From an uncultured Alphaproteobacteria bacterium (GTDB lineage Bacteria > Pseudomonadota > Alphaproteobacteria > HIMB59 > GCA-002718135), in NCBI GenBank assembly GCA_902580765.1, contig CACHLW010000001.1, positions 41,143 through 105,142 of the forward strand: a stretch of 64,000 bases of DNA, given 5' to 3'. Both the position numbers and the translations under genes were made by a program. This document shows positions 1,938 to 38,892 of the stretch, piece after piece. Numbering within the stretch: position 1 is the first letter of the stretch; every line of letters begins with the position of its first letter. Below the pieces are notes generated by a model that made no database searches, was not told the DNA's origin, and saw only the letters and a list, made by a program, of their open reading frames with translations.

Positions 1938-2876
1938 ATGAGCCATTTATTTTATAAACCTGCTAAATCTAGATTACACAGAAGTGAATTGGCAGTTCCT
2001 GGCTCTAATCCAAAGATGTTTGAAAAAGCATTAAAATCAAATGCCGATTATATTTTCTTAGACCTAGAAGATGCAGTATCTCCAAATGATAAAATTGATG
2101 CAAGAAGAAATGTTATTAATGCAATAAAAGAATATAACTGGAAAGAAGAAGGTAAAACAATCTCTATAAGAATTAACGGTTTGGATACACACTATATGTA
2201 TCGTGATGTGATTGAAATTATAGAAGAGGTAGGTGATAGGGTTGATACATTATTAATTCCAAAAGTAGGCTCATCATCCGATGTATATATGGTTGATTGT
2301 ATGCTTAATCAAATTGAGCAAAATAAAAAATTTGAAAATAGAATAGGTTTAGAATGTTTAATTGAAACAGCACTAGGAATGTCTAATATTCAATCAATTG
2401 CAACATCAAGTTCAAGACTAGAAGCATTACATTTTGGAGTTGCAGATTATGCCGCAAGTATGCGAGCAAGAACTGTTGTCATAGGAGGTTTAAATCCTGA
2501 TTACCCTGGTGATCAATGGCATCATGGCTTATCAACTCTAGTAATGACCTGTAGATCATATGGCTTAAGAGCAATAGACGGACCTTTTGGTGATTTTAAT
2601 GACAAAAAAGGATATCTAGATGCTGCAAAAAGAGCTGCAGCAATTGGTTTTGAGGGTAAATGGGCAATACATCCATCGCAAATAGATTTAGCTAATGAAG
2701 TTTTTTCTCCACCCAAAGAAGAAATAGATAAAGCAAAAAAAATATTATTAGAATTAGAAAAAGCAGCTGCTGAAGGAAAGGGTGCTGCTCAGCTTGATGG
2801 AAGAATGATCGACGCCGCATCTGCTAGAATGGCTGAAAATATTGTAAATATAAATAAATTAATTGAGAGCAAGTAA
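1938..2876 (+). CDS. mcl: L-malyl-CoA/beta-methylmalyl-CoA lyase (HpcH/HpaI aldolase-CitE family)
   Basis: 312 aa. Long blocks match methylotroph Mcl as I recall it: RLHRSELAVPGSNP, FLDLEDAV, IRINGLDTHYMYRDV, LIETALGM, FGVADYAAS, FEGKWAIHPSQIDLANEVF. It lies directly upstream of mtkAB-like genes. Confidence 0.85.
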   Translation: MSHLFYKPAKSRLHRSELAVPGSNPKMFEKALKSNADYIFLDLEDAVSPNDKIDARRNVINAIKEYNWKEEGKTISIRINGLDTHYMYRDVIEIIEEVGDRVDTLLIPKVGSSSDVYMVDCMLNQIEQNKKFENRIGLECLIETALGMSNIQSIATSSSRLEALHFGVADYAASMRARTVVIGGLNPDYPGDQWHHGLSTLVMTCRSYGLRAIDGPFGDFNDKKGYLDAAKRAAAIGFEGKWAIHPSQIDLANEVFSPPKEEIDKAKKILLELEKAAAEGKGAAQLDGRMIDAASARMAENIVNINKLIESK

Positions 2877-4036
2877 TGGATATACACGAATATCAAGCAA
2901 AAAAAATATTGTCTGATTTTGGTGTTAAAATTCCGACTGGTGGTATTGTTTATAGTCCAGAAAATGCAGAAAACAAAGCAAGAGAAATTGGTGGTTCAAA
3001 ATGGGTTGTAAAAGCGCAAGTTCACTCAGGTGCTAGAGGTAAAGCGGGAGGAATTATAATATGTAATTCTCCGTTAGAAGTTGCTGATGCTACTGATAAA
3101 TTGTTAGGTAAAAAATTAATTACAAATCAAACTGGTCCAGAAGGTAAGATAATAAATAGAATTTATATTGAAGAAGCAACTGATATCAAACACGAATTAT
3201 ATTTAGGTTTAGTGTTTGATAGATCTTCAGAAAGTATAATGGTTGTAGCTTCAACAGAAGGTGGAATGAGTGTTGAAGAAATTTCAAAAGAAAAACCTGA
3301 AACAATTATACGATCAAAAATAGAAGTAGCAGTTGGTATTCAACAATTTCAAGCAAGAGAAATAGCTTTTGGTCTAGGAATTGAATCCAAATTGATCTCA
3401 AGAGCTGCAAATACAATTATAGGTTGTTATAAAGCTTTTAGTGAGCTTGATGCGACAATGGTTGAAGTTAACCCATTAGTTGTATCACACCAAGATGAAA
3501 TATTAGCATTAGATTGTAAAATGAGCTTTGATAATAATGCAATGTTTAGAAGAGATGAAATTGCAGAACTTAGAGATAAGACACAAGAAAATTCAAATGA
3601 AGTTTATGCTTCTGATAGAGGAATGAATTATGTAAGCTTAGATGGGAATATTGGTAATATTATTAATGGTGCAGGCTTAGCAATGGCTTCAATGGATATG
3701 ATAAAACTTGCTGGTGGCGAACCTGCTAATTTTTTAGATGTTGGTGGAGGTGCAACACCTGAAAAAATAGTTAAAGCTTTTAAATTAATCTCTATGGACA
3801 CAAAAGTTAAGGTTATATTAGTTAATATCTTTGCAGGTATTAATAGATGCGATTGGGTTGCAGAAGGAATTGTTCAAGCTTTATCAAAAATTGAAATTAA
3901 ACATCCGTTAGTTATACGTTTAGCTGGAACTAATGTCGAAAAGGGAAATGAAATTCTTAAAAAAAGCAATATTAATTACATTGAAGCATCAACTTTAGAA
4001 GATGCAGCAAATAAAGCAGTAAAGGCTCTTGGATAA
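2876..4036 (+). CDS. mtkA: Malate--CoA ligase (malate thiokinase) beta subunit, SucC-like ATP-grasp
   Basis: 386 aa. MDIHEYQAK..., the VHSGARGKAGG loop (MtkA-like GARGKAGG versus SucC GGRGKAGG), and GEPANFLDVGGGAT. The start overlaps the mcl stop (TAATG). Context with mcl favours mtkA over sucC. Confidence 0.75.
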   Translation: MDIHEYQAKKILSDFGVKIPTGGIVYSPENAENKAREIGGSKWVVKAQVHSGARGKAGGIIICNSPLEVADATDKLLGKKLITNQTGPEGKIINRIYIEEATDIKHELYLGLVFDRSSESIMVVASTEGGMSVEEISKEKPETIIRSKIEVAVGIQQFQAREIAFGLGIESKLISRAANTIIGCYKAFSELDATMVEVNPLVVSHQDEILALDCKMSFDNNAMFRRDEIAELRDKTQENSNEVYASDRGMNYVSLDGNIGNIINGAGLAMASMDMIKLAGGEPANFLDVGGGATPEKIVKAFKLISMDTKVKVILVNIFAGINRCDWVAEGIVQALSKIEIKHPLVIRLAGTNVEKGNEILKKSNINYIEASTLEDAANKAVKALG

Positions 4037-4038
4037 TC

Positions 4039-4935
4039 ATGTCTATAATCATTCACAAAAATACAAAGATTTTAGTCCAAGGTTTCACTGGAAAAATTGG
4101 AAGTTTTCATGCTGAAGAAATGATTAAGTATGGTTCTAACGTTGTTGGTGGAGTAACACCTGGTAAGGGTGGTATGACTCATTTAAATCTTCCTGTTTTT
4201 AATACTGTTAAAGAAGCTGTAGATCAAACAGGAGCATCAACATCAATTTTATTTGTCCCACCAGCCTTTGCAGCAGACTCAGCAATGGAAGCTGCTGATG
4301 CAGGTATTAAAACATGTGTGGCTATTACGGACGGTATTCCTTCTCATGATATGGTTAAAATAAAAAGATATATGAGGAGATATCCAAAAGATAAAAAAAT
4401 GGGATTAGTAGGTCCGAATTGTGCAGGAATAATTAGCCCTGGTAAATCTATGTTAGGTATTATGCCTGGTCATATTTACAAAGAAGGCAAAATAGGAATA
4501 GTTAGCAGATCTGGCACTTTGGGATATGAAGCTGCACAACAACTTAAAGATTTGGAAATTGGTGTTTCAACAAGTGTAGGTATAGGAGGCGATCCAATAA
4601 ATGGAAGTTCTTTTAGAGATATAATTGAAAAGTTTGAAAATGATGATGAAACTATTGCAGTTTTAATGATAGGTGAAATAGGTGGACCACAAGAAGTTGA
4701 AGCTGGACAATTTGCTAAAGAAAATATGAGTAAACCAGTAATTGCGTATATAGCAGGACTAACTGCACCCAAAGGTCGTGTGATGGGGCATGCTGGAGCA
4801 ATTGTTTCTGCTTATGGTGAAAGTGCAATAGAAAAAGTAGAGCTTCTTAAAGAGTGTGGAGTTACAATTTCCAAAAATCCTTCTGTAATGGGTGAGACTG
4901 TGAAAAAAGTATTAGTAGAAAATAATTTGAATTAA
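4039..4935 (+). CDS. mtkB: Malate--CoA ligase alpha subunit, SucD-like
   Basis: 298 aa. VQGFTGKIGSFH, GGVTPGKGG, the RYMRRYPKDKK insertion typical of MtkB as I recall it, SRSGTLGYEA, and GHAGAI with the phosphohistidine. It starts 2 nt after mtkA. Confidence 0.75.
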   Translation: MSIIIHKNTKILVQGFTGKIGSFHAEEMIKYGSNVVGGVTPGKGGMTHLNLPVFNTVKEAVDQTGASTSILFVPPAFAADSAMEAADAGIKTCVAITDGIPSHDMVKIKRYMRRYPKDKKMGLVGPNCAGIISPGKSMLGIMPGHIYKEGKIGIVSRSGTLGYEAAQQLKDLEIGVSTSVGIGGDPINGSSFRDIIEKFENDDETIAVLMIGEIGGPQEVEAGQFAKENMSKPVIAYIAGLTAPKGRVMGHAGAIVSAYGESAIEKVELLKECGVTISKNPSVMGETVKKVLVENNLN

Positions 4936-5143: not shown

Positions 5144-5707
5144 ATGAAATTATATCTTATTAGACACGCAGAGTCAGAAGCTAATGCAGCATCAGATTTA
5201 GATAATCCAACTTATTATTATGATGCAAGAATTACTAAAAGAGGAGTTGAGCAAGCAATAAAATTAAATAATAGAATTAAAAATCTTAAATTTGATAATT
5301 ATTTTTGCTCCCCCTTAACAAGAACATTAGAAACATTCTCTATTGTTTTTCCATCTAATAAACCTGTAATTGAACCATTAATAAGAGAACATTTGTACCA
5401 CTCATGTGATGTAGGAAGACAACCAAAAAAATTAAAAAAAGAATTTAATAATTTTGATTTTAAAAATTTAAATGATTTTTGGTGGAATAATAACAAACCT
5501 ATTAATGAAAAAAAAATTATACAAGAGTCCCACAATGATATTAAAATTAGATTAAGATCTTTTCTACTATCTATCAAAAACCTTAATTTACAAAAAATTG
5601 TATTAGTCAGTCATGGTACATTCTTAAGTCAAATAACTGAATATATGCTAGATAACTGTGAGGTATATGATTGTGAGTACAATGAGATATACGAAAAATT
5701 TTTTTAA
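5144..5707 (+). CDS. Histidine phosphatase (phosphoglycerate mutase-like) family protein
   Basis: The N-terminal LYLIRHAESEAN contains the RHG-type catalytic motif. A distal SHG motif (LVSHGTF) is present. 187 aa. Confidence 0.8.
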   Translation: MKLYLIRHAESEANAASDLDNPTYYYDARITKRGVEQAIKLNNRIKNLKFDNYFCSPLTRTLETFSIVFPSNKPVIEPLIREHLYHSCDVGRQPKKLKKEFNNFDFKNLNDFWWNNNKPINEKKIIQESHNDIKIRLRSFLLSIKNLNLQKIVLVSHGTFLSQITEYMLDNCEVYDCEYNEIYEKFF

Positions 5708-5730: not shown

Positions 5731-6498
5731 CTAAAACATCTCATTTATTATTTTATTTAATTTTTGAGTTACTCTATCAATTATTTTTTTTCCTATCTGT
5801 GCATTGGATTTTCTAGGATCTCCAATAATTCCACTTTTACTTAATTCTTTAGTTACCCAAGCTTTTTTAATATTTTTCTCATAAGAAATGGTTTTAGATG
5901 ATAAATAATCGGAGGATAATCTATGTTTAGAAATTTTAGATTGCCTAACTAGGTTTGGAAATAAATATAACATAATAGATGTTTCAAATTCTCCACCGTG
6001 ATAACCAAAGTCTTTTTCTTTACTTGATATAATTCCTTTAAATTGATCAAATAAAAAATATGTGCCTTTTACTATGTTTATCTTAAATTCTGATTTCAAT
6101 TCTTTAGCAATAATATCTATATGGCTAATTTGTCCACCATGACTATTTAAAAGTAATATATTTTTAAATTTCAATTTACATACATTTTCTAATATTGACA
6201 AAGAGTGCGATATAAATTCCAATGAATCAATACTTATTGTTCCATCAAAATCTGTATGTTCAGAAGCTGAACCAAAATATATTTCAGGCATAATTAAATA
6301 TTTATTTGAATTATATTTTTTATTGAATTCTAATAATATTCCTTCAAGAATTTTTTTATCAGTATTTAATGGAAGATGTGGACCGTGTTGCTCTATTGAT
6401 GAAAATGGGAAAATTAAAACTGTTTTTCTATTTATTTTTTTAATTTCATTTGTTGTTAATTCTTCCCAAAAGTTTGTTAGCATTTTTTTATTATACAT
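5731..6498 (-). CDS. Creatininase-fold amidohydrolase family protein
   Basis: 255 aa. The metal and active-site blocks look intact: SSIEQHGPHLPLNTD, LNSHGGQ, HGGEFETS. Confidence 0.8.
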   Translation of the reverse strand: MYNKKMLTNFWEELTTNEIKKINRKTVLIFPFSSIEQHGPHLPLNTDKKILEGILLEFNKKYNSNKYLIMPEIYFGSASEHTDFDGTISIDSLEFISHSLSILENVCKLKFKNILLLNSHGGQISHIDIIAKELKSEFKINIVKGTYFLFDQFKGIISSKEKDFGYHGGEFETSIMLYLFPNLVRQSKISKHRLSSDYLSSKTISYEKNIKKAWVTKELSKSGIIGDPRKSNAQIGKKIIDRVTQKLNKIINEMF

Positions 6499-6511: not shown

Positions 6512-7471
6512 ATGAAATCTTATTCTTTATGGATTGATAAAAAAAAACAAGCTAAAATTTATCAAAAAAAACTTGTTTACAATAAAAATAACAAAACAGT
6601 TTTAGTTAAAACTATTTACTCAGGTATTAGCAAGGGAACTGAAAAATTAATTTCATCTAAAAGCGTAAGTGAGGATCAATTTGAATTAATGAAAGCCCCT
6701 TTTCAAGAGGGTTCTTTTAATTTACCTATAAAATATGGCTATATAAATGTTGGGAATATTATCGATGGTCCAAGGGAATATATAAATAAAAAAATATTTA
6801 GTCTTTATCCTCATCAGGATTTATATGAAATTTCTATTCAAAATTTAATTTTTTTACCTAAAGGAAATTTGAGAAAATTTGTTCTAACTGCAAATATGGA
6901 AACAGCTATTAATATCTTTTGGGACGCTCAATCTAAAAGTAATAACAAAATTCTAATTGTAGGGCTTGGCTCTGTAGGATTATTAACTGCATTTTTTTTT
7001 AAAATTAATGGATATAAAAATGTTTATGTTTATGATAATAATAAAAATAAAAGAAAAATTGCCAATTATTTAGGATTAAATTTTATTGATATAAGAAAGA
7101 TTGAGAAAATTGATGTAGCAATAAATACTACAGCTAATTATAAAGTTTTAAATTCTCTAATGGAAAAATTATCTATCGAAGGAAAAATAGTAGAAGCTAG
7201 TTGGTATGGTAAAAATAAAGGAGAAGTTGCCTTAGGCGGGTATTTTCATTCTAAAAGATTAAAAATTATTAGTTCACAGGTATCTAAAATACCAAAATAC
7301 ATGAAAAATAAATATGATTTTGAGGGGAGATTAAAATTAGCAATTAAATCTTTAAAAAATTCAAAATTAGAAAAATTAATTACTAGTGAAAGTAATTTTT
7401 TTGATTTAGAAAAAGATTACTATAAAATCCTTAAAAATAAAGATACAATAATGCATCTAATTAAATATTAA
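6512..7471 (+). CDS. MDR-superfamily (BchC-like) zinc-type alcohol dehydrogenase family protein
   Basis: 319 aa. It has the SGISKGTE motif found in the BchC-like MDR subgroup in place of GxCxxD, and a Rossmann motif ILIVGLGSVGLL. Confidence 0.7.
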   Translation: MKSYSLWIDKKKQAKIYQKKLVYNKNNKTVLVKTIYSGISKGTEKLISSKSVSEDQFELMKAPFQEGSFNLPIKYGYINVGNIIDGPREYINKKIFSLYPHQDLYEISIQNLIFLPKGNLRKFVLTANMETAINIFWDAQSKSNNKILIVGLGSVGLLTAFFFKINGYKNVYVYDNNKNKRKIANYLGLNFIDIRKIEKIDVAINTTANYKVLNSLMEKLSIEGKIVEASWYGKNKGEVALGGYFHSKRLKIISSQVSKIPKYMKNKYDFEGRLKLAIKSLKNSKLEKLITSESNFFDLEKDYYKILKNKDTIMHLIKY

Positions 7472-7473
7472 TT

Positions 7474-7872
7474 ATGTATTCTATAAAAGTAAGAGAAAAT
7501 ATTCTAATAGCTCATTCATTACCTGGAGAAGTATTTGGACCAGCCCAAAATATGCATGGAGCTACATATTTAGTAGATGCAGAATTTTTCACTGATAAAC
7601 TTAATAAATACAATATAATTATGGATTTAGGAATAGTGTCCACGACTTTAAAAGATATTCTTAAAATATATAATTATCAAAATTTAGATGAAATTGATGA
7701 ATTTAAGGGTAAAATTACCTCAACAGAGTTTTTAGCAGAGGATATCTGCAATAAGATCTTAAATAGACTAAGAAATGAATTCTCTCAAGATTATAAATCT
7801 TTAAAAAAAATTAAAATAACCTTGCAAGAATCAAATGTTGCATGGGCATCATATGAAAAAGAGGTTATCTAA
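7474..7872 (+). CDS. 6-pyruvoyl-tetrahydropterin synthase/QueD-fold (COG0720) protein, non-canonical active site
   Basis: 132 aa with the tunnel-fold pattern ...ILIAHSLPGEVFGPAQNMHGATYLVDAEF...MDLG...L.N.. The canonical C-x3-H-G-H reads A-x3-H-G-A here. Confidence 0.7.
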   Translation: MYSIKVRENILIAHSLPGEVFGPAQNMHGATYLVDAEFFTDKLNKYNIIMDLGIVSTTLKDILKIYNYQNLDEIDEFKGKITSTEFLAEDICNKILNRLRNEFSQDYKSLKKIKITLQESNVAWASYEKEVI

Positions 7873-8899
7873 AAATAAATCTGATATTTATTTTGTTTAT
7901 CCAGGAAACATTAATGCAAAAACTGGAGGATATATTTATGAAAAAAATATCCTAGAATATGCAAAGATAAGAGATATAAATATTAGACCAATTGCTCTAA
8001 GTGAAAATTATCCTTTTCCTACAAACAACGATATAAAATATTTTCTAAAAATTTTAGATAAAATTGATCCTGACTCTAAAATTATCATAGATGGATTAGT
8101 TTTAGAAGGAATGTATTCAATTTTTAAAAAATTACTTACTTATAATGTCATCGCGCTAATACATCATCCTTTATATCTTGAATTTAAAAGTCATAGGTCA
8201 AAAAAATTCTTACGATTAGAAAAAGAAAATTTCAAAAAAATAAATAAATTTATTGTGACCTCTAAAAATACAAAAAATTTATTAATAAATGATTTTAAGG
8301 TACTAAATAATAAAATTTCTGTAGTTGAACCTGGTATAGAAAGACTTGTAAAATATAATTTTAAAAATAATAGTAAAATTCATTTTTTAACATGTGGAAG
8401 TATAATAAATAGAAAAAATTATCTTTTTTTATTAAAAGTTTTAAAGCCTTTAGATAATTTTATTTTAGAAATTGTTGGTGATACTACAAGAGATATAAGT
8501 TATTACAAAAAACTCAAAAAATTTATTTCTAAAAATTCAATGAACAGAAAAATAATATTCCATGGTACTATTTCAGATACAAAATTAGCTAAATTATATT
8601 CTAAAACAGATTGTTACATTTCGGTAAGTAAATATGAAGGTTTTGGCATGTCTTTAGCAAATGCATTAATAATTAAAAAGCCAATTATAACCTTTTTCAC
8701 TAATACTATCTTAAATACAATTGGAAAAAAGGGTGTTATTTATTTCAAAAAATTTGAAGTAAATGATCTTAGAAATATAATTATTAAAAATATATTAAAT
8801 AAAAAAAATTTTAAAAAACTAAATATTGATATTCATAAAAATAAAAGATATCTTCTTACTCCTCTAGAGTCAGCTAAGAAATTTGTTAATTTAATTTAA
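7835..8899 (+). CDS. Glycosyltransferase (GT-B, group-1/GT4-like)
   Basis: The C-terminal half has ...VGDTT...LAKLYSKTDCYISVSKYEGFGMSLANALIIKKPII..., a GT4-like E-x7-E region whose second E is Asn here. A more likely start is ATG 7853 (MKKRLSK...), which still overlaps the upstream gene by 20 nt. Confidence 0.7.
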   Translation: MLHGHHMKKRLSKNKSDIYFVYPGNINAKTGGYIYEKNILEYAKIRDINIRPIALSENYPFPTNNDIKYFLKILDKIDPDSKIIIDGLVLEGMYSIFKKLLTYNVIALIHHPLYLEFKSHRSKKFLRLEKENFKKINKFIVTSKNTKNLLINDFKVLNNKISVVEPGIERLVKYNFKNNSKIHFLTCGSIINRKNYLFLLKVLKPLDNFILEIVGDTTRDISYYKKLKKFISKNSMNRKIIFHGTISDTKLAKLYSKTDCYISVSKYEGFGMSLANALIIKKPIITFFTNTILNTIGKKGVIYFKKFEVNDLRNIIIKNILNKKNFKKLNIDIHKNKRYLLTPLESAKKFVNLI

Positions 8900-8900
8900 T

Positions 8901-9689
8901 ATGCATGAATTTCAAAATAAATGGTTAAATCTTAGAGAAACTGTCGATAGGAATTCAAGAAATAAAAGAATACTATATTTAATTAATAAATTTTTTAAAA
9001 ATAAAAAAAATATTAGAATAGTTGACTTAGGTTCAGGTGCTGGATCTAATTATAGATTTCTTAAATCGAGATTATTAAATAATCAATATTGGTCTTTTGT
9101 AGATATATCACATCAATCAACAAATTATTTTAAAAAAAATATAAAATTATCATCTAAAATAAAAAAAACTAATTTTAAAATTGTTGATGTAATTAATAAT
9201 CTAGAAAAAATAAATCTTAATGATTATAATTTAGTTACAGGATCTGCTTTTTTAGATATTCTTCCAAAAACATGGTTTAAAAATTTTCATAAATTAAATG
9301 TTGATACAGAAATTGTCTACTTTGCCTTAAATTATAACGGTAATTTTAAATTTTTTCCAAAACACAAGGATGATAAAAAAATTCTTAATATTTTTAATAA
9401 AGATCAAAAATCTGACAAAGGAATAGGGGAAGTGGCCGTTGGACCAGATTGTACTGAATTAATAAATAAAGTATTTAAAAGGACTCACAAAACATATGTT
9501 TTAGACTCTACATGGGATGTTAGTAAAAATTATAAATTTCAAATTTATTTCTTAAATTTTTGTAGAGAAATTATTCAAAAAAATAAACTTAACTTTGATG
9601 ATTGGTTAAAATTTCGTTTAAAATGTATTAAAGAAAAAAATTCTAGATTTATTTTAAATAATACAGATTTTTTAGCTATTAAGAAATAA
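8901..9689 (+). CDS. Class-I SAM-dependent methyltransferase
   Basis: 262 aa. SAM motif I is IVDLGSGAGSN, and an acidic post-I residue (FVD) is present. It starts 1 nt after the glycosyltransferase. Confidence 0.65.
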   Translation: MHEFQNKWLNLRETVDRNSRNKRILYLINKFFKNKKNIRIVDLGSGAGSNYRFLKSRLLNNQYWSFVDISHQSTNYFKKNIKLSSKIKKTNFKIVDVINNLEKINLNDYNLVTGSAFLDILPKTWFKNFHKLNVDTEIVYFALNYNGNFKFFPKHKDDKKILNIFNKDQKSDKGIGEVAVGPDCTELINKVFKRTHKTYVLDSTWDVSKNYKFQIYFLNFCREIIQKNKLNFDDWLKFRLKCIKEKNSRFILNNTDFLAIKK

Positions 9690-10505
9690 ATTAACAATAA
9701 TTTCATTTTCTAATTCATTAAAATTATGTTTTGGTCTGATAGCTTTATTGAGATTTGAAATTTCTTTTAAATTTAATGAATTAATTCCGGAACCTATTAA
9801 TATTGGGGCAATCATAAATTGAAGAATATCAATATATTTATTATTTATTAATTCTGAAATAGTTTTTGATCCTCCCTCTACTAAAATATTTTTATATTTA
9901 AGTTTTTTTATTTGCGTAATTAAGTTTTTAGTAAAATTTTTTTCTTTTAACCTAATTATTATTGAATTATTTAATCTAATATTTTTATTACTTTTTGTAA
10001 AAATTATATTTTCATTACCGTCATTAAATATTTTATATTTGTTATTTAGTGAAAGACTGCCATCAATAATAATTCTTTTTGGATTTGTGCCCTTTATTTT
10101 TCTTGTTGTTAATAGGGGATCATCTTTTTTTATGGTATTTGAGCCTACAATAATTGCATCACTGATACTTCGTAAACAATGTAGGTAAATAATACTCTTG
10201 GGATTATTTATGTAATGTGAATTACCATTATTTAATGCAATTCTACCATCAATACTTTGTCCTATCTGAGCTATAACTAATTTTTTGTTTTTTTTTAATA
10301 TCGGGAAAAGGATATTTAAGATTGATTGATAAAATTTACTAATATTAATTTTAGATTCCAGATTATTATTTTTTATGTAAAAATTACTTTTTCTTTTTGA
10401 TGATAAAGAAATACTATTTTTTTTAACCAATAAATATAAATCACTATTCTTTTTAGAATTTTTTATAAAATCTAGTAAAATTCCTATATTTTTTGATGTA
10501 ATCAT
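9672..10505 (-). CDS. RibD C-terminal-domain (pyrimidine ribosyl reductase/DHFR-like) family protein, no deaminase domain
   Basis: 277 aa. ...IAQIGQSIDGRIA..., ...GSNTIKKDDPLLTTR... and ...ILVEGGSKTISELI... are RibD_C-type blocks. There is no CMP/dCMP deaminase zinc motif. The 3' end overlaps the methyltransferase by 18 nt (convergent). Confidence 0.7.
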   Translation of the reverse strand: MITSKNIGILLDFIKNSKKNSDLYLLVKKNSISLSSKRKSNFYIKNNNLESKINISKFYQSILNILFPILKKNKKLVIAQIGQSIDGRIALNNGNSHYINNPKSIIYLHCLRSISDAIIVGSNTIKKDDPLLTTRKIKGTNPKRIIIDGSLSLNNKYKIFNDGNENIIFTKSNKNIRLNNSIIIRLKEKNFTKNLITQIKKLKYKNILVEGGSKTISELINNKYIDILQFMIAPILIGSGINSLNLKEISNLNKAIRPKHNFNELENEIIVNLFLNS

Positions 10506-10541
10506 TTGTTTTTATTTCAATTATATCTATATAAAGTTTTC

Positions 10542-11663
10542 ATGAGTTTCAAATCTAATACAGGCACTATAATAGATAGGGCAATTAACGAACTCAGGAC
10601 CGGAAGACCCTTAATAATTCAGAATAACAAGGAATTTTGGATGTTCTTTAATATAGAGCATTCCCAAAGTAAAATTTTTAATCAATTCAATAAGCACTTA
10701 ATTGATGAAAAATATCTACTTATTACTAAACAAAAAGCTCAATCAATTTTTAATAAGAATATTAAAAGTAATATTTATTTTGAAATAAATCCCAAAACTG
10801 ATGTAAATCAAATAATAAATTTATTTGTCAACCCTCTTAGCAATAATAAAGTAATTAAATTTACCAATATTAAAAAATTCAAATCTAAAAATTTTCATAA
10901 TGTTTGTATTGATCTTTCCAAAAATGCTAAAATGATACCGTCGTTAGTTTTTAAAAAAATTAATAAAAAATATTACAAAAATATAAACGAATTTGGATAT
11001 AAGAATGGAATTTTAATATTTGACTACAAAGATTTATTGAAACAAAATGAATTAATTTGTGAAAGTATTAAATTAGTTTCCAGTGCAAAAGTTCCATTAC
11101 CAAAAAACGAAAATTCTAATTTTAAAATATTCAAATCATATATTGGATCTGATAAACATGTAGCGATAATTGTTAATCCAAAAAAAATAAATAAAAAATC
11201 TGTTAATTTAAGAATACATTCAGCTTGTTTTACAGGTGATATTTTTCATTCTTTAAAATGTGATTGTGGTGAGCAATTAAATCAATCAATCAATTACATG
11301 GTTAGAAATAATGGTGGAGTTATATTATATTTAGAACAAGAGGGTAGGGGAATAGGATTAGCTAATAAAATGAGAGCTTATTCTCTTCAAGCAAGGGGTA
11401 TGGATACAATAGACGCCGATCATAATATTGGTTTTTTAGATGATGAAAGAGATTTTAATATTGCAGCTAGAATACTGAAATTATTAAAAATAAATAAAGT
11501 TAATCTCATTACAAATAATAAAAATAAAATTAATTCTATTAAGAAAGCTGGAATTAAAGTCGAAAATCAAATAAATACAAAGCCAACATTGAATAAATTC
11601 AATAAAAATTATTTTAAAACAAGAGTTAAAAAAGCTGGGTACGGTCTTAAACTAGTAGTATAA
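10542..11663 (+). CDS. GTP cyclohydrolase II-like protein with a degenerate RibB-like N-terminal domain
   Basis: The C-terminal ~170 aa read RIHSACFTGDIFHSLKCDCG (Zn Cys triad with E. coli spacing), LYLEQEGRGIGLANKMRAYSLQ and DERDF. The N-terminal ~200 aa start like DHBP synthase (IDRAINELRTGRPLII) but lack its acidic DDEDRENEGD motif. I moved the start from the track's TTG 10506 to ATG 10542 (MSFKSN...). Confidence 0.8.
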   Translation: MSFKSNTGTIIDRAINELRTGRPLIIQNNKEFWMFFNIEHSQSKIFNQFNKHLIDEKYLLITKQKAQSIFNKNIKSNIYFEINPKTDVNQIINLFVNPLSNNKVIKFTNIKKFKSKNFHNVCIDLSKNAKMIPSLVFKKINKKYYKNINEFGYKNGILIFDYKDLLKQNELICESIKLVSSAKVPLPKNENSNFKIFKSYIGSDKHVAIIVNPKKINKKSVNLRIHSACFTGDIFHSLKCDCGEQLNQSINYMVRNNGGVILYLEQEGRGIGLANKMRAYSLQARGMDTIDADHNIGFLDDERDFNIAARILKLLKINKVNLITNNKNKINSIKKAGIKVENQINTKPTLNKFNKNYFKTRVKKAGYGLKLVV

Positions 11664-12113: not shown

Positions 12114-13007
12114 TTATTTAATTTTACCTATTTCTTTTTCTCTTTTAATTACAAATAAACCACTTAACGTAATAATTATTGCACCAATAATCATATTATA
12201 AGTTGGAGTTTCACCTAGTATTAAATACCCAAAAATCATACCAAATATAATTACACTGTATCTTGCAGAGGCGGTTAATGAGAGTGGTGCATAAAAAACT
12301 GTTAATACTGAAAATAAATATCCGAATAAAACAAATATACTAGAAACAAGAATATAATTTACATCTTCACCGCTTACTTGATAACCAAAAATAATTGAAC
12401 CCAACCCTGCAAACCCAGTAATCAACAATGCTGTCACAAATGTAATTTCAACACTATTTGATTTAGTAGCTAAACTTTTTGTAGCAATATCTCTAATAGT
12501 TAAAAAAATAGCAGCTAAAATTGGTAACACTAAAAGATAATTAAATTGAAAATTTTGTGGATTTACAACTACTAGCACACCTAAAAAACCAATAATAACT
12601 GCACACCATCTTCTTATTCCAACTTTCTCTCCTAAAAAAAGAAAAGCAAATATTGTGACAAAGAAAGGATTAGTCATTAAAAGTGTATAAACCTCAGATA
12701 TTGGAAGTAATATTAAACCAACTAAAAAAAATAATGCTGTTAAAACTTCATACAAACCTCTTATATGAAAACTTTTGATTGATAGTATTTTAATTAAATT
12801 TTTTTTTTCGAAAAAAACTAAATATAAACCTAATAAACTTGATGTAACTAAACCTCTTAAAAAAATTACAGAATATAATGAATTGTCATCACCTATATTT
12901 TTTACAACAAGTTTGACATAACTATCATTTATAGAGAATGATAATTGGCCAGCCATCATAAAAAGTACACCTATCGTCCCAACTGAAAATAAAATCTTGC
13001 TTTTCAT
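12114..13007 (-). CDS. DMT-superfamily (EamA) transporter
   Basis: 297 aa with ~10 TM segments. Mid-protein motif FLGEKVGIRRWCAVIIGFLGVLVVVNP. Confidence 0.85.
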   Translation of the reverse strand: MKSKILFSVGTIGVLFMMAGQLSFSINDSYVKLVVKNIGDDNSLYSVIFLRGLVTSSLLGLYLVFFEKKNLIKILSIKSFHIRGLYEVLTALFFLVGLILLPISEVYTLLMTNPFFVTIFAFLFLGEKVGIRRWCAVIIGFLGVLVVVNPQNFQFNYLLVLPILAAIFLTIRDIATKSLATKSNSVEITFVTALLITGFAGLGSIIFGYQVSGEDVNYILVSSIFVLFGYLFSVLTVFYAPLSLTASARYSVIIFGMIFGYLILGETPTYNMIIGAIIITLSGLFVIKREKEIGKIK

Positions 13008-13031
13008 AATAAAAAAAAATATTTAACTGAT

Positions 13032-14366
13032 ATGTTACAAAGAAATACTTCCAGCCATTTATATGGATTTACTGACTTGAAGTCATTAAATGAAAGAGGG
13101 CCTTTAGTTATTTCTTATGGAAAAGGAATACATGTTTACGATACTAAAGGTAATAAATATCTAGATGGGAATTCTGGTCTATGGAATCAGTGTGCTGGTT
13201 TTGACCATCCTGGACTAATTGAAGTTGCAAAAAAACAGTATGAAAAATTTGCTGGTTATCATTCTTTATTTGGAAGATTGTCTGAAGAAACGTTGCAGCT
13301 ATCTGAAAAAATTATTGAAGTATCACCTTTTGATCAAGGTCGTGTATTCTTTTGTAATTCAGGATCTGAAGCAAATGACACCATGGTCAAAATGTTATGG
13401 ATGTTAAATGCAAGAATTGGAAAGCCAAATAGACGAAAAATTATAACAAGAATTAATGGATATCATGGCGTTACTTTAGGAGCTTCTTCAATGACAGCCA
13501 AACCATATAATAAAGAGTTTGGTTTACCATCTGAAGAATTTATTCATATTGAATGTCCTCATTATTGGAAATATGGATTAGAGAATGAAACGGAAGAAGA
13601 ATTTTCTCTTAGGATGGCCAAAAATTTAGAAGAAAAAATCATCAAAGAAGATCCAGAAACTATTGCAGGTTTTGTTGCAGAACCTGTTCAAGGTGCAGGA
13701 GGTTGTATACCTCCTTCAAAATCGTATTTTGATTTAGTTCAGCCTATATTAAAAAAATATAATATTCCTTTTATCGCAGATGAAGTAATTTGTGGATTTG
13801 GTAGAACTGGAAATTTATGGGGCTGCGATACATACAATATCAAACCAGATATAATTATCTCATCTAAATGTTTAACCGCTGGATACTTTCCTATGGGAGC
13901 AGTTATAGTTAATAAAGAATTTTCAGATAAATTTGTTGAAGTATCAGAAGAAGCAGAAGAATTTCCACATGGTTTTACAGCTGGCGGTCATCCTGTTGGA
14001 TGTGCGATTGCTTTGAAAGCAATAGATGTAATTATGAATGAGGGTTTATTAGACAATGTAAAGTTGATGGAACCTTATTTTTTTGAAAGATTAAATGAAT
14101 TTAATGATTATGCACACATTGGAGAAACTAGAGGTATAGGTCTTATGGCTGCATTAGAGATGGTAAAAAATAAAGATACAAAAGAGCCATTCGAAGGTTA
14201 TCTTAACATGGGAGATAAAGTTGCTAATTTATCAATTGATAATGGATTAATTTGTAGACCTTTAGGTCCTGCTATTGTTTTGTGTCCTCAATTTATAATT
14301 ACAAAAAATCAAATTGATGAAATCTTTGATTCTCTTCATAAAACTATAAAGCAAGTATTTAATTAA
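13032..14366 (+). CDS. Class-III PLP aminotransferase (omega-transaminase type; substrate unknown)
   Basis: 444 aa. NSGSEAND, IADEVICGFGRTG, and a PLP lysine block ISSKCLTAGYFPMGAV. Confidence 0.85.
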   Translation: MLQRNTSSHLYGFTDLKSLNERGPLVISYGKGIHVYDTKGNKYLDGNSGLWNQCAGFDHPGLIEVAKKQYEKFAGYHSLFGRLSEETLQLSEKIIEVSPFDQGRVFFCNSGSEANDTMVKMLWMLNARIGKPNRRKIITRINGYHGVTLGASSMTAKPYNKEFGLPSEEFIHIECPHYWKYGLENETEEEFSLRMAKNLEEKIIKEDPETIAGFVAEPVQGAGGCIPPSKSYFDLVQPILKKYNIPFIADEVICGFGRTGNLWGCDTYNIKPDIIISSKCLTAGYFPMGAVIVNKEFSDKFVEVSEEAEEFPHGFTAGGHPVGCAIALKAIDVIMNEGLLDNVKLMEPYFFERLNEFNDYAHIGETRGIGLMAALEMVKNKDTKEPFEGYLNMGDKVANLSIDNGLICRPLGPAIVLCPQFIITKNQIDEIFDSLHKTIKQVFN

Positions 14367-34623: not shown

Positions 34624-35717
34624 TGTTTAAAATTATAATCATATTTAATTTTTTTATTTTTTTATTTTTTAATAAAAATGTTTTATCTTTAGACAACAAA
34701 TATAAGCTTGAAATTTTAAAATCTAATTTAAGTTCCCCTTGGAGTTTAACATTTATAAGCAATAATCAAATTTTAATTAGTGAAAAAACTGGTAAAATTA
34801 AATTATTTGATATTTTAAGTAATAAAATTACTGAGATAGATCATACCTTAAATGTAATTAGGGATAAAAATTCACAAGGTGGTCTTTTAGACATTTACTT
34901 TTATAATAATCAAGTTTTTATATCTTACTCTGAAAAAATTGGTGATAAATTATTTAGTCCTTCAACAACATCTATTGCAAAAGCAGATTTAGATTTAAAT
35001 TTCTTAAATTTTGAAAACATTTTTAGAGCTAATCCACCTATTAGATCACCTTATCACTTTGGTTCGAGAATAGCTATTCATGATGATTATTTATACGCAT
35101 CTGTAGGTGAAAGAGGAAAAGGAATGATAGCTCAAGATGCTAATCAACATCCTGGAAGTATCATCCGAATTAAATTAGATGGAACTTCTCCTAAAGATAA
35201 TCCTCATTACATCTCACAAGAAACATGGTTACCCGAAATATATCAAATCGGTGTTAGAAATCCACAAGGAATGTCTATTTCTCCTTTTGATAATAAAATT
35301 TATATTAGTAATCACGGAGCAAAAGGTGGCGATTGGTTTGGTGAAGTTAAAAAGGGTGAAAATTATGGTTGGAAAATTTTAGGTTGGGGTGGAACTAATT
35401 ATGATAATTCCAAAATTGGTCCTAAATGGTTACCTGGTTTTACAAAAGCAATTCATTACTGGGTGCCATCAATTGCAGTTAGCGCAATCACAATATATGA
35501 TGGAAATGAATTTCCAGAATTTAAAGGATTAGCACTTATAACATCTTTAAAAGATCAATCTCTACGCTCACTAGATTTTTCAAATTTAGATAATGTGAAA
35601 GAACATATTGTTTTTAAAAAAGAAATAGGAAGAATAAGAGATATTAAAATTCATCCAGTGAGTGGTAAAATATTTTTATTAGCACAAGATAAATTATGGT
35701 TATTTGAAAAAAAATAA
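34623..35717 (+). CDS. PQQ-dependent (soluble) sugar dehydrogenase, YliI/sorbosone dehydrogenase-like beta-propeller
   Basis: 364 aa with a signal peptide. HPGSIIRIKLDGTSPKDNP, IGVRNPQGMS, GENYGWK. Confidence 0.8.
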   Translation: MFKIIIIFNFFIFLFFNKNVLSLDNKYKLEILKSNLSSPWSLTFISNNQILISEKTGKIKLFDILSNKITEIDHTLNVIRDKNSQGGLLDIYFYNNQVFISYSEKIGDKLFSPSTTSIAKADLDLNFLNFENIFRANPPIRSPYHFGSRIAIHDDYLYASVGERGKGMIAQDANQHPGSIIRIKLDGTSPKDNPHYISQETWLPEIYQIGVRNPQGMSISPFDNKIYISNHGAKGGDWFGEVKKGENYGWKILGWGGTNYDNSKIGPKWLPGFTKAIHYWVPSIAVSAITIYDGNEFPEFKGLALITSLKDQSLRSLDFSNLDNVKEHIVFKKEIGRIRDIKIHPVSGKIFLLAQDKLWLFEKK

Positions 35718-35763
35718 TTTTAATGAGTGTTGAGAAATATTCTTTTTAATTTATACATACAAT

Positions 35764-35880
35764 ATGTTTGAATTTTTAGCGTTTTTAGTTGGTGTTATGA
35801 TTATGGGACCAATAGTGTATATTTTTTTTTTAGTTCAAGATTTAAAAAAAAGGATTGATAAGCTTGAAAATAAAAATTAA
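35764..35880 (+). CDS. Possible 38-aa single-TM small protein (below the ORF-track size cut-off)
   Basis: ATG 35764 to TAA 35878-35880. MFEFLAFLVGVMIMGPIVYIFFLVQDLKKRIDKLENKN has one TM segment followed by a charged helical tail. Confidence 0.35.
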   Translation: MFEFLAFLVGVMIMGPIVYIFFLVQDLKKRIDKLENKN

Positions 35881-35886
35881 TTTTTA

Positions 35887-36714
35887 ATGCATAAAAATAT
35901 TTTTTTGGCTTCTTATCCTAAATCTGGAAATACTTGGCTGAGGTCTATTATTGGAAATTTTTATAATTTTGATAAAGATTTTAGCCTCAATGATTTAAAA
36001 TTAATACCTTTACTATCAATTAAAAAACATTTTAGTGAATTTGAAAATAAAATTTATACAAATAATAATGAGTTACATTTTGATTGGATTTCACAAAATA
36101 TTATTAAATGTCAAAAAATATTAAACAATAAAGTAAATCATCTGAATATATTTAAAACTCATAGTGCAAGACATAAAAATTTTACAAATGAAACAGTAAA
36201 TGCAGGTTTTATTTATATAGTTAGAGATCCTAGAGACATAATAGTTTCTCTTAAAAATTTTTCAGGTAAAGAAATTGATAAAACTATTGATGAGTTTCTT
36301 TTTTCAAAAAGTTTAATGATTACAACTAATGGAGCGCAAGAATTACTTTCAACTTGGGAACTTAATGTTCAATCCTGGTTAAATTATAATAGTGTTCCTA
36401 GATTGATCATAAAGTATGAAGATTTAAAATTAAATCCAAAAGAAATTATATTAAATATTACGAAATTTCTTAATAAAATACACAGATTAAATATAAACTT
36501 AAGTGACCAAGACATTGACAAAATAATAGAAAATACAAATTTTACTAATTTAAGAAATTTAGAAGATAAAAATGGTTTTGATGAAGCTACAAAACATTCT
36601 AAATTTTTCAGATCAGGCACATCTAATCAATGGAAAGATATATTATCTAATTCACAAGCCAAGCTTATTGAAAAAAATCTAAAATCATTAATGAAGTATT
36701 TTAATTATATTTAG
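35887..36714 (+). CDS. PAPS-dependent sulfotransferase-domain protein
   Basis: 275 aa. 5'-PSB loop SYPKSGNTWLRS, catalytic-His region FKTHSA, and 3'-PB motif YIVRDPRDIIVS. Confidence 0.85.
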   Translation: MHKNIFLASYPKSGNTWLRSIIGNFYNFDKDFSLNDLKLIPLLSIKKHFSEFENKIYTNNNELHFDWISQNIIKCQKILNNKVNHLNIFKTHSARHKNFTNETVNAGFIYIVRDPRDIIVSLKNFSGKEIDKTIDEFLFSKSLMITTNGAQELLSTWELNVQSWLNYNSVPRLIIKYEDLKLNPKEIILNITKFLNKIHRLNINLSDQDIDKIIENTNFTNLRNLEDKNGFDEATKHSKFFRSGTSNQWKDILSNSQAKLIEKNLKSLMKYFNYI

Positions 36715-36721
36715 ATTATAA

Positions 36722-36811
36722 TGGCGGAGAGAGTGAGATTCGAACTCACGAACGAGTTGCCCCGTTGCCGGTTTTCAAGACCGGTGCTTTCAACCGCTCA
36801 GCCATCTCTCC
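36722..36811 (-). tRNA. tRNA-Ser (anticodon UGA)
   Basis: The reverse complement folds as a 90-nt class-II tRNA. Acceptor GGAGAGA/TCTCTCC, anticodon arm CCGGT-CTTGAAA-ACCGG, a long variable arm, T arm GTGAG-TTCGAAT-CTCAC, and an encoded CCA. Confidence 0.95.
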
Positions 36812-36903
36812 GTTTAAATGCTTACTATAGTTTCATCTTAAAAATGTCAAAATATTAAGTATTATCATTTCCTAATTGACGATAGTTTTGGTAATTTTAA
36901 TTA

Positions 36904-37941
36904 ATGATTATTAGGTTTATAATATTCTTTATTTTTATTTCTTTCAAATCCTATGCAACTGATTGTGAAAAACCGAAAATGCCAACTGATGAAGAATGGA
37001 ACAGTTGGCTGACTAATATAAAACAAGAAGCACTTGAAAGAGGTATAAGTCAAAATACTATTTCAAATAATTTAAATGATGTTAAGCCACAAAGTAAAAT
37101 TATTATGCGTGATAGATGCCAGCCGGCATCAACAATGACTTTAGATGAGTATTTATTTTATACAATTACTAAAGATAAAGTTTTTGCAGGAAAAAATTTT
37201 TTAAAAAAACATGAAGATTTATTAAAAGAAATTGGAGATTATTTTAAAATACAACCAAGATTTATTGTTGCTGTATTAGGTATGGAAAGTTATTATGGAA
37301 GAAATCAAGGAAAAATAAATTCCATAATTGCGATAACCACTCTTGCATTTGATAGAAGAAGAAGTGACTTTTATAAAAAACAATTATTTGCTGCTCTTGA
37401 AATATTAGATAAAAATCTTGTTCCAAATGGAGAACTAAAAGGTAGTTGGGGTGGGGCAGTTGGTATGACACAAATGATTCCTACAACTTTTTTAGAAAAT
37501 GCATATGATTGGGATGGCAATGGTATTGATATCTGGAATAGTTATGCTGATGCTTTTGCTAGTACTGCAAACTATTTAACTTCATTAGATAAAAATCCAT
37601 GGTCTAATGATAGTACTTGGGGTAGAGAAGTGCTTCCACCAAAAAATATTTCTTCATCTTTTTTTGATTCTATAAAACAAGTTAACCCCAAAGGTTGTGG
37701 GGCAGTTAAACGTAGATCAATTCCTAAAACTCTATCCGAATGGTCAAAATTAGGATTTACAAAGATCAATGGAGATCCTTTACCAATTAGAGATGATTTA
37801 GAAGCTAGATTAATAATGCCTGATGGGATAGATGGAAGAATGTTTATAGTTTATCCTAATTACAAAAATATTCTTTATTATAATTGTTCATCATATTATG
37901 CTGTATCAGTGGGTCTCCTAAGTGATAAAATATCTAATTAG
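36904..37941 (+). CDS. Lytic murein transglycosylase (MltB/Slt35-like)
   Basis: 345 aa with a signal peptide. LGMESYYG, GAVGMTQMIPTTF, and DGNGIDIW are blocks typical of the MltB family. Confidence 0.8.
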   Translation: MIIRFIIFFIFISFKSYATDCEKPKMPTDEEWNSWLTNIKQEALERGISQNTISNNLNDVKPQSKIIMRDRCQPASTMTLDEYLFYTITKDKVFAGKNFLKKHEDLLKEIGDYFKIQPRFIVAVLGMESYYGRNQGKINSIIAITTLAFDRRRSDFYKKQLFAALEILDKNLVPNGELKGSWGGAVGMTQMIPTTFLENAYDWDGNGIDIWNSYADAFASTANYLTSLDKNPWSNDSTWGREVLPPKNISSSFFDSIKQVNPKGCGAVKRRSIPKTLSEWSKLGFTKINGDPLPIRDDLEARLIMPDGIDGRMFIVYPNYKNILYYNCSSYYAVSVGLLSDKISN

Positions 37942-38857
37942 TCTAATTTTTCTTTTATTTATATTTTCTTGCAATGAATTAAATCTCAATAACGTTTCTG
38001 ATGTTGTAGAAAATAGCACAAATAAAATAGAAAAAATAATTGACAATAAAAAAGAAGATAAAAAAGAAATAAATCAATTAACCAATAAAAAAACTAAAGA
38101 TAATATTTTTTATTATGTTGGTGAGCCTTATTTTATTGAAGGGGTTAGTTACATTCCAGAGGAAAATTATAATTATTCGGAAATCGGACTTTCTTCTTTT
38201 TACGGTAAGGAATTGCACAATATTAAAACAGTAAACAATGATACAAATAAAGTTACAGAGTTACTTGGTAGACATAAAATATTACCTATACCAAGTATGG
38301 TCAAAGTAACTAACTTGGATAATGGACTTTCTATAAATGTAAAAATAATAGATAGACATGATGATAATGCAGTTATTATTCAGGTTTCAAGAAAAGTTGC
38401 ACAACTTCTTGGATTTTATAAATCTAAAATAGCTACTGTAAAAGTAGAAATACTTTCTGATGCTAGTAAACAATGGAAGAGTGTTGCAAATTCATTAAAT
38501 GAAGAAAATTTTGATGAAACTATCTTGTCTGCACCAACAGAAATTGTATCTATTGAAGAAATTGATGAAAATATGAATTCTAATGATGAAGCTACTATAA
38601 TTATAGAAGAGCCAATTGAACTTAAATCAGAAAAAATAACTGATTTTAAATTGTATTTAAGAGTTACTGGGTTTAAAAACTATGAGAGTATTCGATCAGT
38701 ATTAGATAATTATGATAATAATCTAAAATATACTTCTGAAAAAAATAATTCCAAATATGACGTAATTATTGGTCCTTTAGAAAATACAGAAGCAAATAAT
38801 TTGGTTTCATACTTTATCTCAAAAGGTTATAAGGAGACTGAAATTCTTATTGAATAA
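37922..38857 (+). CDS. rlpA: RlpA-family septal-ring lytic transglycosylase lipoprotein with a SPOR-like C-terminus
   Basis: Lipobox-like LLFIFSC. A DPBB block (GLSSFYG...TAAH..LP.PS.V.VTNL.NG.S..V.I.DR). The C-terminal ~80 aa (LYLRVTGFKNYE...IIGPLENTEANNLV) resemble a SPOR domain. A GTG start overlaps the upstream gene by 20 nt. Confidence 0.8.
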   Translation: MIKYLISLIFLLFIFSCNELNLNNVSDVVENSTNKIEKIIDNKKEDKKEINQLTNKKTKDNIFYYVGEPYFIEGVSYIPEENYNYSEIGLSSFYGKELHNIKTVNNDTNKVTELLGRHKILPIPSMVKVTNLDNGLSINVKIIDRHDDNAVIIQVSRKVAQLLGFYKSKIATVKVEILSDASKQWKSVANSLNEENFDETILSAPTEIVSIEEIDENMNSNDEATIIIEEPIELKSEKITDFKLYLRVTGFKNYESIRSVLDNYDNNLKYTSEKNNSKYDVIIGPLENTEANNLVSYFISKGYKETEILIE

Positions 38858-38892
38858 CAAATAAAGGTCATAATTAAGAATTATTAATATTT

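Follow-up and report, generated by a model that had tools for sequence, protein, structure and literature searches.

An intact PTPS-IV gene without the canonical zinc and cysteine site in a conserved gene cluster of a SAR11 genome

The window analysed here is a stretch of 64,000 nucleotides from an uncultured alphaproteobacterium of the SAR11 lineage (contig CACHLW010000001.1, positions 41,143 to 105,142), and the gene under study lies in it at 7474..7872 on the forward strand, within a seven-gene cluster and tightly packed between a dehydrogenase gene and a glycosyltransferase gene. Its product has 132 amino acids, exactly as an earlier interpretation made from the letters alone (the sequence-only reading) had described. 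The gene is intact and is an orthologue of Streptomyces coelicolor SCO6650, belonging to subfamily PTPS-IV of COG0720, the superfamily of 6-pyruvoyl-tetrahydropterin synthase (PTPS) and QueD. The assignment to PF01242/COG0720 was given by the Pfam PTPS profile (PF01242, E = 8.9e-21, 74.5 bits against a cut-off of 22.4), which was covered over positions 2-121 of 121 and thus over the full domain. The protein scored below the cut-offs of the NCBIfam models for QueD (TIGR03367, 37.3 bits, cut-off 89.25) and for general PTPS/QueD (TIGR00039, 28 bits, cut-off 125).

The best solved relative was SCO6650 itself (PDB 3D7J), matched over the full length with E = 1.9e-33 in a single-sequence search. When the PDB was searched with a profile of 38 subfamily sequences, 3D7J was retrieved with E = 1.1e-54 and 187 bits, the next chain following at 2e-09 and all others scoring at most 40 bits. 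The sequence-only reading had asserted that the tunnel fold was retained and had named structure prediction as a check, and a confident monomer model was obtained with AlphaFold2 from 46 sequences taken from the window and from fetched loci (mean predicted local distance difference test score, pLDDT, 93.3; element order E-E-H-H-E-E). In Foldseek the model was superposed on 3D7J with a template modelling (TM) score of 0.93, a root-mean-square deviation of 1.3 Å and 45% identity in the structural alignment, and on QueD and PTPS chains with TM scores of 0.71-0.80, that for E. coli QueD being about 0.75. The SCO6650 structure described by Spoonamore et al. in 2008 is said to be a hexameric T-fold with no zinc, no catalytic triad and no PTPS activity.

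PTPS-IV is listed with its own signature among the COG0720 subfamilies by Zallot et al. 2016 (PMC5041015), and the AGeNNT paper gives this signature as 'FGPAQ' and reports PF00925 GTP cyclohydrolases in the PTPS-IV neighbourhood (PMC5445326, citing PMC5041015). Both were found here, the signature as F21-G-P-A-Q25 in the context V-F-G-P-A-Q and the PF00925 member as a GTP cyclohydrolase II (GCH II) homologue at 10506-11663. Together with the closest structure and the loss of the Cys, of the Asp-His pair and of the three-His zinc site, they place the 132-amino-acid protein in PTPS-IV. Since FGPAQ has been published and a member has been crystallised, the Cys and zinc-site loss is a known hallmark of the subfamily and not an oddity of one gene; it is not new, being the defining trait of a subfamily whose name and crystal structure are more than ten years old. 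The sequence-only reading had considered membership in a subfamily of known function as an outcome that would overturn it. This applies in part: membership was indeed established, by FGPAQ and by 3D7J, but no established function of the subfamily was found in the accessible literature.

For a residue by residue comparison, E. coli K-12 QueD (b2765) was aligned by hhalign to the 38-sequence subfamily profile, and invariance was read from the 46 aligned sequences. All of the following positions are on the forward strand.

7507..7518, I-A-H14-S: His14 corresponds to QueD His16, zinc ligand 1, and is kept; A13, H14 and S15 are invariant
7534..7548, F21-G-P-A24-Q25: Ala24 stands at the catalytic Cys (QueD Cys27, rat PTPS Cys42), which is lost; F21, G22, P23 and A24 are invariant
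7555..7566, H28-G-A30-T31: His28 corresponds to zinc ligand 2 (QueD His31) and is kept; all four residues are invariant
Within 7555..7566, Ala30: stands at zinc ligand 3 (QueD His33), which is lost
7672..7677, Asn67-Tyr68: stand at the Asp-His catalytic pair (QueD Asp70/His71, rat Asp88/His89), which is lost
7717..7728, T82-S-T-E85: corresponds to QueD P-T-S-E and is kept; T82 and E85 are invariant
7828..7830, Glu119: corresponds to QueD Glu110 and is kept; invariant

The replacement of the catalytic Cys and of the last zinc-binding His by Ala, and the retention of the upstream His, were thereby borne out as the sequence-only reading had them; the replacement of the Asp-His pair is an addition to it. 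An independent comparison of the profile with rat, human and C. elegans PTPS in HMMER agreed with hhalign, pairing 'FGKCNNpnGHGHNY' with 'FGpAqn..lHGaTy' and 'LDHKNLD' with 'LNYKNLD'. A shifted ('translated') Cys was ruled out: Cys92, the only Cys beside two His in the protein, is not conserved, and no conserved Cys column was present in the 38 or 46 aligned homologues, so that the Cys is truly absent and has not moved. None of the established motifs was found, CxxxHGH of PTPS-I being replaced by A-Q-N-M-H-G-A, CxxxxxHGH of PTPS-II being missing in the alignment to the animal enzymes, and ExxHGH of PTPS-III having Gln25 at the Glu position and Ala30 at the last His. The claim that the protein is either non-catalytic or has a different chemistry, within a non-standard cluster, accordingly stands, because the canonical zinc and Cys machinery is gone and its residues are not merely shifted. 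Two retained elements bear on what may be bound. The counterpart of T82-S-T-E85 in PTPS structures contacts the pterin or pyrimidine ring, and that of Glu119 is the residue which anchors the 2-amino-4-oxo ring; the two may do the same here.

A phmmer search of 1.84 billion cluster representatives gave 1058 relatives with E<1e-3, 416 of them with E<1e-10, and the motif IAHS…FGPAQxLHGAT[YF] was present in almost all of the 149 matches listed below the query's own cluster (50%-identity representatives). IAHS…FGPAQxLHGAT is nearly invariant over hundreds of 50%-identity clusters, which come from at least five phyla. Among the 46 aligned sequences 25 columns were invariant, including A13, H14, S15, F21, G22, P23, A24, H28, G29 and A30 and further T31, D35, D51, N70, L71, D72, T82, E85, E119 and S120. 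The ratio of nonsynonymous to synonymous substitution rates (dN/dS) was 0.06-0.09 against SAR11 orthologues. The gene is under strong purifying selection, and the recurrence of the same substitutions is far beyond chance. Because the motif recurs so widely, the columns are invariant and dN/dS is low, the substitutions are fixed in this old subfamily and under selection. These data refute the idea of a decaying, functionless remnant of a QueD or PTPS gene, which the loss of all canonical catalytic residues might have suggested and to which next to no probability is given in view of the low dN/dS, the motif set invariant in at least five phyla, the model pLDDT of 93 and a frame intact at every locus examined. 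No fusion partner domain was seen in the ten longer homologues examined, which consisted of one to three copies of the PTPS domain. Homologues from outside the window with two or three tandem PTPS-IV domains (among P0124, P0125, P0145, P0147, P0149, P0160, P0202 and P0209) reached up to 855 amino acids in one chain, and all their copies retained FG(P)AQ…HG. They are possibly of eukaryotic algal origin, and three copies in one chain could mimic the tunnel-fold trimer.

The genes that accompany the PTPS-IV gene in the cluster are as follows.

5731..6498, reverse strand: creatininase-fold amidohydrolase (Pfam Creatininase 2.7e-55; weak ArfB match 2.6e-07), divergent from the dehydrogenase gene
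6512..7471, forward strand: BchC-like MDR dehydrogenase (NCBIfam BchC 8e-14; Pfam ADH_zinc_N and Glu_dehyd_C, both below curated cut-offs)
7835..8899, forward strand: GT4-type glycosyltransferase (Pfam Glycos_transf_1 5.8e-19)
8901..9689, forward strand: putative S-adenosylmethionine-dependent methyltransferase (weak NCBIfam matches only, to sugar O-methyltransferase at 4e-05 and to BioC)
9672..10505, reverse strand: RibD_C-type pyrimidine reductase with no deaminase domain (Pfam RibD_C 3e-31)
10506..11663, forward strand: GTP cyclohydrolase II homologue with an N-terminal extension (Pfam PF00925 7e-49; Tyr in the 'RAY' motif)

The dehydrogenase stop and the PTPS-IV start are separated by a gap of two nucleotides, and the probable start of the glycosyltransferase, ATG 7853, overlaps the 3′ end of the PTPS-IV gene. 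The reductase also matched TIGR01508, the archaeal diaminopyrimidine reductase, with 1e-26 and below the cut-off. Beside the creatininase gene the cluster is flanked by a gene of the histidine phosphatase family (5144-5707), which in another SAR11 genus (G020; L179 11706-11816) follows the GCH II gene and was absent from the PTPS-IV loci outside SAR11; it could be a phosphatase of the pathway. The region just upstream of the cluster (1938-4935) holds a malyl-CoA lyase-like gene and, after it, a SucC/SucD-like pair that may encode a malate thiokinase. These genes are probably unrelated neighbours, since no homologues of them were found beside PTPS-IV in 80 loci outside SAR11.

The conservation of the cluster was assessed in the best 80 of more than 600 PTPS-IV loci, which were collected by a pattern scan (built on 12 sequences) of one genome per species. 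The 80 loci span Acidobacteriota, Actinomycetota, Alpha-, Beta- and Gammaproteobacteria, Myxococcota and Gemmatimonadota. Counts for the window proteins were obtained by tblastn, and second counts by clustering open reading frames into families.

MDR dehydrogenase: 77 of 80 loci, nearly always the next gene upstream, on the same strand
GT4 glycosyltransferase: 66 of 80 loci, nearly always the next gene downstream
Methyltransferase homologue: 52 of 80 loci
RibD_C reductase: 47 of 80 loci; reading-frame family in 52
GTP cyclohydrolase II: 29 of 80 loci by tblastn; reading-frame family in 49 of 80
Creatininase-fold hydrolase: 20 of 80 loci by tblastn; reading-frame family in 36 of 80

The order is nearly fixed as dehydrogenase, PTPS-IV, glycosyltransferase, methyltransferase, RibD_C (opposite strand), GCH II and creatininase (opposite strand). 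Unbiased clustering of the neighbours in GC-rich loci yielded mostly shadow reading frames, and limiting it to frames with several predicted transmembrane segments recovered two membrane families, both confirmed with Pfam. The first, a CDP-alcohol phosphatidyltransferase (CDP-OH_P_transf), was present in 56 of the 80 loci, where its gene is usually transcribed away from that of the dehydrogenase; the second, a flippase-like protein (LPG_synthase_TM), was present in 32 of the 80. Locus L111 serves as an example (7978-8742, reverse strand, and 12187-13260, forward strand; membrane genes among L083-L161). These lipid-attachment genes suggest that the end product of the clusters outside SAR11 is lipid-linked. 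The SAR11 cluster has neither gene, the genome of the window containing a weak match only, on another contig, and the divergent slot is taken by the creatininase gene.

SAR11 genomes are of about 1.1-1.6 Mb, and the seven-gene cluster is kept in two of the seven genera sampled. The absence of PTPS-IV from two of the genomes, G024 (L176, G024:C5) and G025 (L177, G025:C11), is apparent only, because the assemblies break within the RibD_C gene or directly after the GCH II gene, and so within the cluster or immediately beyond it; where draft genomes are scored for the presence of a gene, such contig breaks have to be looked for. The residue at the 'RAY' position of the linked GCH II was surveyed as well (loci L106, L116, L131, L137, L153 and L155 among others). 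It was Tyr in SAR11 and 20 other loci (21; SAR11, proteobacteria, acidobacteria), Met in five actinomycete loci (four Streptomyces, one Amycolatopsis), His in two and Leu in one. The residue at this position is reported to switch the product between the deformylated and the formylated pyrimidine. According to what Spoonamore and Bandarian reportedly found in 2006, Met makes SCO6655 stop at the formylated formamidopyrimidine (FAPy) product. Early chemistry may thus differ between lineages, given Tyr in some linked GCH II enzymes and Met in others, and a creatininase homologue accompanies both types.

We favour the explanation that the PTPS-IV protein is a zinc-independent tunnel-fold component of an orphan GTP-derived pathway, in which it binds or converts an intermediate, and consider this reading in full to be probably correct. 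GTP would be taken by the clustered GCH II and RibD_C reductase to a 2,5-diamino-6-ribosyl- or ribityl-aminopyrimidinone phosphate. The intermediate is expected to keep its 2-amino group, which the conserved Glu would recognise, because the clustered RibD_C protein has no deaminase domain. PTPS-IV would bind the 2-amino-4-oxopyrimidine or pterin ring of this labile compound and, with the adjacent dehydrogenase, may act catalytically without a metal, for instance by closing a ring or by tautomerisation once a side-chain hydroxyl has been oxidised, or may present the intermediate to its partners. The product would then be glycosylated and methylated, and in most carriers outside SAR11 it would probably be attached to lipid by the CDP-alcohol phosphatidyltransferase.

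Several points weigh against this explanation. Biochemical data on any PTPS-IV member were not found in the accessible literature, nor was a paper naming the product of the PTPS-IV cluster, searches for SCO6650, SCO6655, 3D7J and the cluster having given nothing. The loss of every known catalytic residue fits a purely binding role equally well. GCH II, RibD_C and creatininase were detected less regularly than the core of dehydrogenase, PTPS-IV and glycosyltransferase, and for this reason the GTP origin of the substrate is drawn from context only. Genus g2 of SAR11 has no strong GCH II match besides the clustered enzyme, which may simply be the housekeeping RibA; it may also serve riboflavin synthesis there, because the genus is without a stand-alone copy. 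Finally, the end product may differ between lineages, as the SAR11 cluster is without the lipid-attachment genes.

The rival that survives best is a purely non-catalytic scaffold or carrier, which would hold an unstable intermediate or organise the dehydrogenase and the glycosyltransferase. It accounts for the replacement of the Cys, the Asp-His pair and one zinc His while the counterparts of the QueD Glu and T-x-x-E are kept, and also for the tight packing of the PTPS-IV frame between two enzyme genes and the near-universal adjacency of the three. However, some 25 positions are invariant across phyla, including the polar residues His14, Ser15, His28, Thr31, Asp35, Asn70 and Asp72, and this set exceeds what simple binding of a ring would need and resembles a rebuilt active site. 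Catalysis is favoured over a pure scaffold because so many of these invariant polar residues lie at the former active site, and the scaffold is held to be a serious but distinctly less probable alternative.

A more specific proposal is that PTPS-IV takes part in a zinc-free pterin-forming step independent of GTP cyclohydrolase I. Together with the MDR dehydrogenase it would act on the GCH II product after its reduction, the ribityl C2′ being oxidised and the ring then closed in the tunnel-fold site; the same step would also supply dihydroneopterin for folate in those SAR11 that bear the cluster and are without FolE, and elsewhere a glycosylated, methylated and lipid-linked pterin. It is put forward as a speculation with little probability.

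Slightly weaker still is the reading that the SAR11 cluster exists as a GTP cyclohydrolase I bypass, in which folate synthesis would be supplied with dihydroneopterin phosphate by GCH II, RibD_C, the dehydrogenase and PTPS-IV. The genome of the window has a pabB-pabA-pabC-folP-folB-folK operon (G000:C2 ~35300-39400; L181 9302-13416) that such a product could feed. FolE was found in none of the 26 SAR11 relatives and in none of the 22 genomes with a completeness of 90% or more, which represent seven genera, and FolE2 in none of the 26, while FolB and FolK are common; the observation covers G001-G025 and G054-G065 in addition to the genome of the window. A limited keyword search found no paper on the missing SAR11 FolE. 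A GCH II-based bypass has been documented in Chlamydia (PMC4161248) and by analogy is one candidate source of dihydroneopterin in SAR11, and in chemical terms a reduction and subsequent re-oxidation at C2′ would amount to the Amadori step. The pattern in genus g2 at first looked supportive, once the two absences caused by contig breaks had been resolved, since the g2 genomes without FolB and FolK (G016, G023) are also without the cluster. Against this, FolB occurs without FolE or PTPS-IV in six SAR11 genomes of at least 90% completeness, one has PTPS-IV without FolB, FolE was present in 28 of the 28 carriers tested outside SAR11, and folate synthesis has no use for the glycosyltransferase or the methyltransferase. 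A general substitute for FolE is largely rejected on account of the mismatch of FolB and PTPS-IV in SAR11 and the presence of FolE in all outside carriers tested, and a contribution to folate synthesis at strain level is of low probability.

A role of PTPS-IV in deazaflavin (FO/F420) or riboflavin synthesis is very improbable. Zallot et al., who refer to unpublished work, mention a part of PTPS-IV in making F420 (PMC5041015), and GCH II, the ArfB-like creatininase-fold protein and RibD_C do resemble the early archaeal steps to riboflavin and FO. The FO synthase subunit CofH (TIGR03551), however, was found in none of the 26 SAR11 genomes, 16 of which carry PTPS-IV, so that a role in F420 does not fit this lineage, and the conserved glycosyltransferase, methyltransferase and CDP-alcohol transferase are foreign to these pathways. 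As for riboflavin, a stand-alone RibA separate from the cluster is encoded in the genome of the window, which may also hold a second RibD-type gene, to judge from a short tblastn match at the end of a contig. Three GCH II-family genes were seen in this genome, namely the stand-alone RibA of 198 amino acids beside hisI, that of the cluster and a weaker one of 386 amino acids, the sites outside the window being G000:C2:29548-30036 and G000:C46:643-1089.

PTPS-IV genes should not be annotated as '6-pyruvoyl-tetrahydropterin synthase' or 'QueD'. The retention of the cluster in very small SAR11 genomes, and its union with lipid-attachment genes elsewhere, suggest that many bacteria of soil and sea make a GTP-derived metabolite that has yet to be described and that may be a lipid head group. 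What the cluster makes is a question for the cluster as a whole and not for the PTPS-IV gene alone.

Compared with known systems, the protein is closest to SCO6650 (3D7J), with which it shares homology over the full length and the same motif set IAHS…FGPAQxLHGAT…NLD…TxTE…ES. The SCO6650-type Streptomyces loci (L106, L116, L131, L153, L155) also have the MDR dehydrogenase, glycosyltransferase, methyltransferase, GCH II homologue and creatininase-fold neighbours, but in their linked GCH II Met stands at the place of the SAR11 Tyr, and the Streptomyces clusters contain the CDP-alcohol phosphatidyltransferase and LPG_synthase_TM, both of which SAR11 is without. With QueD of PTPS-I (E. coli b2765, PDB 4NTK) the protein has in common the tunnel fold, superposed with a TM score of about 0.75, and residues that align with the first two zinc ligands, the Glu and T-x-x-E, and it differs in AxxxHGA instead of CxxxHGH and in Asn-Tyr instead of Asp-His. 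With PTPS-II (animal and cyanobacterial; rat 1B66) and the FolB-replacing PTPS-III it shares the fold and the 'FG' before the active-site loop ('FGKC' in PTPS-II, 'FGPA' here), whereas CxxxxxHGH, ExxHGH and the third zinc histidine are all missing from it.

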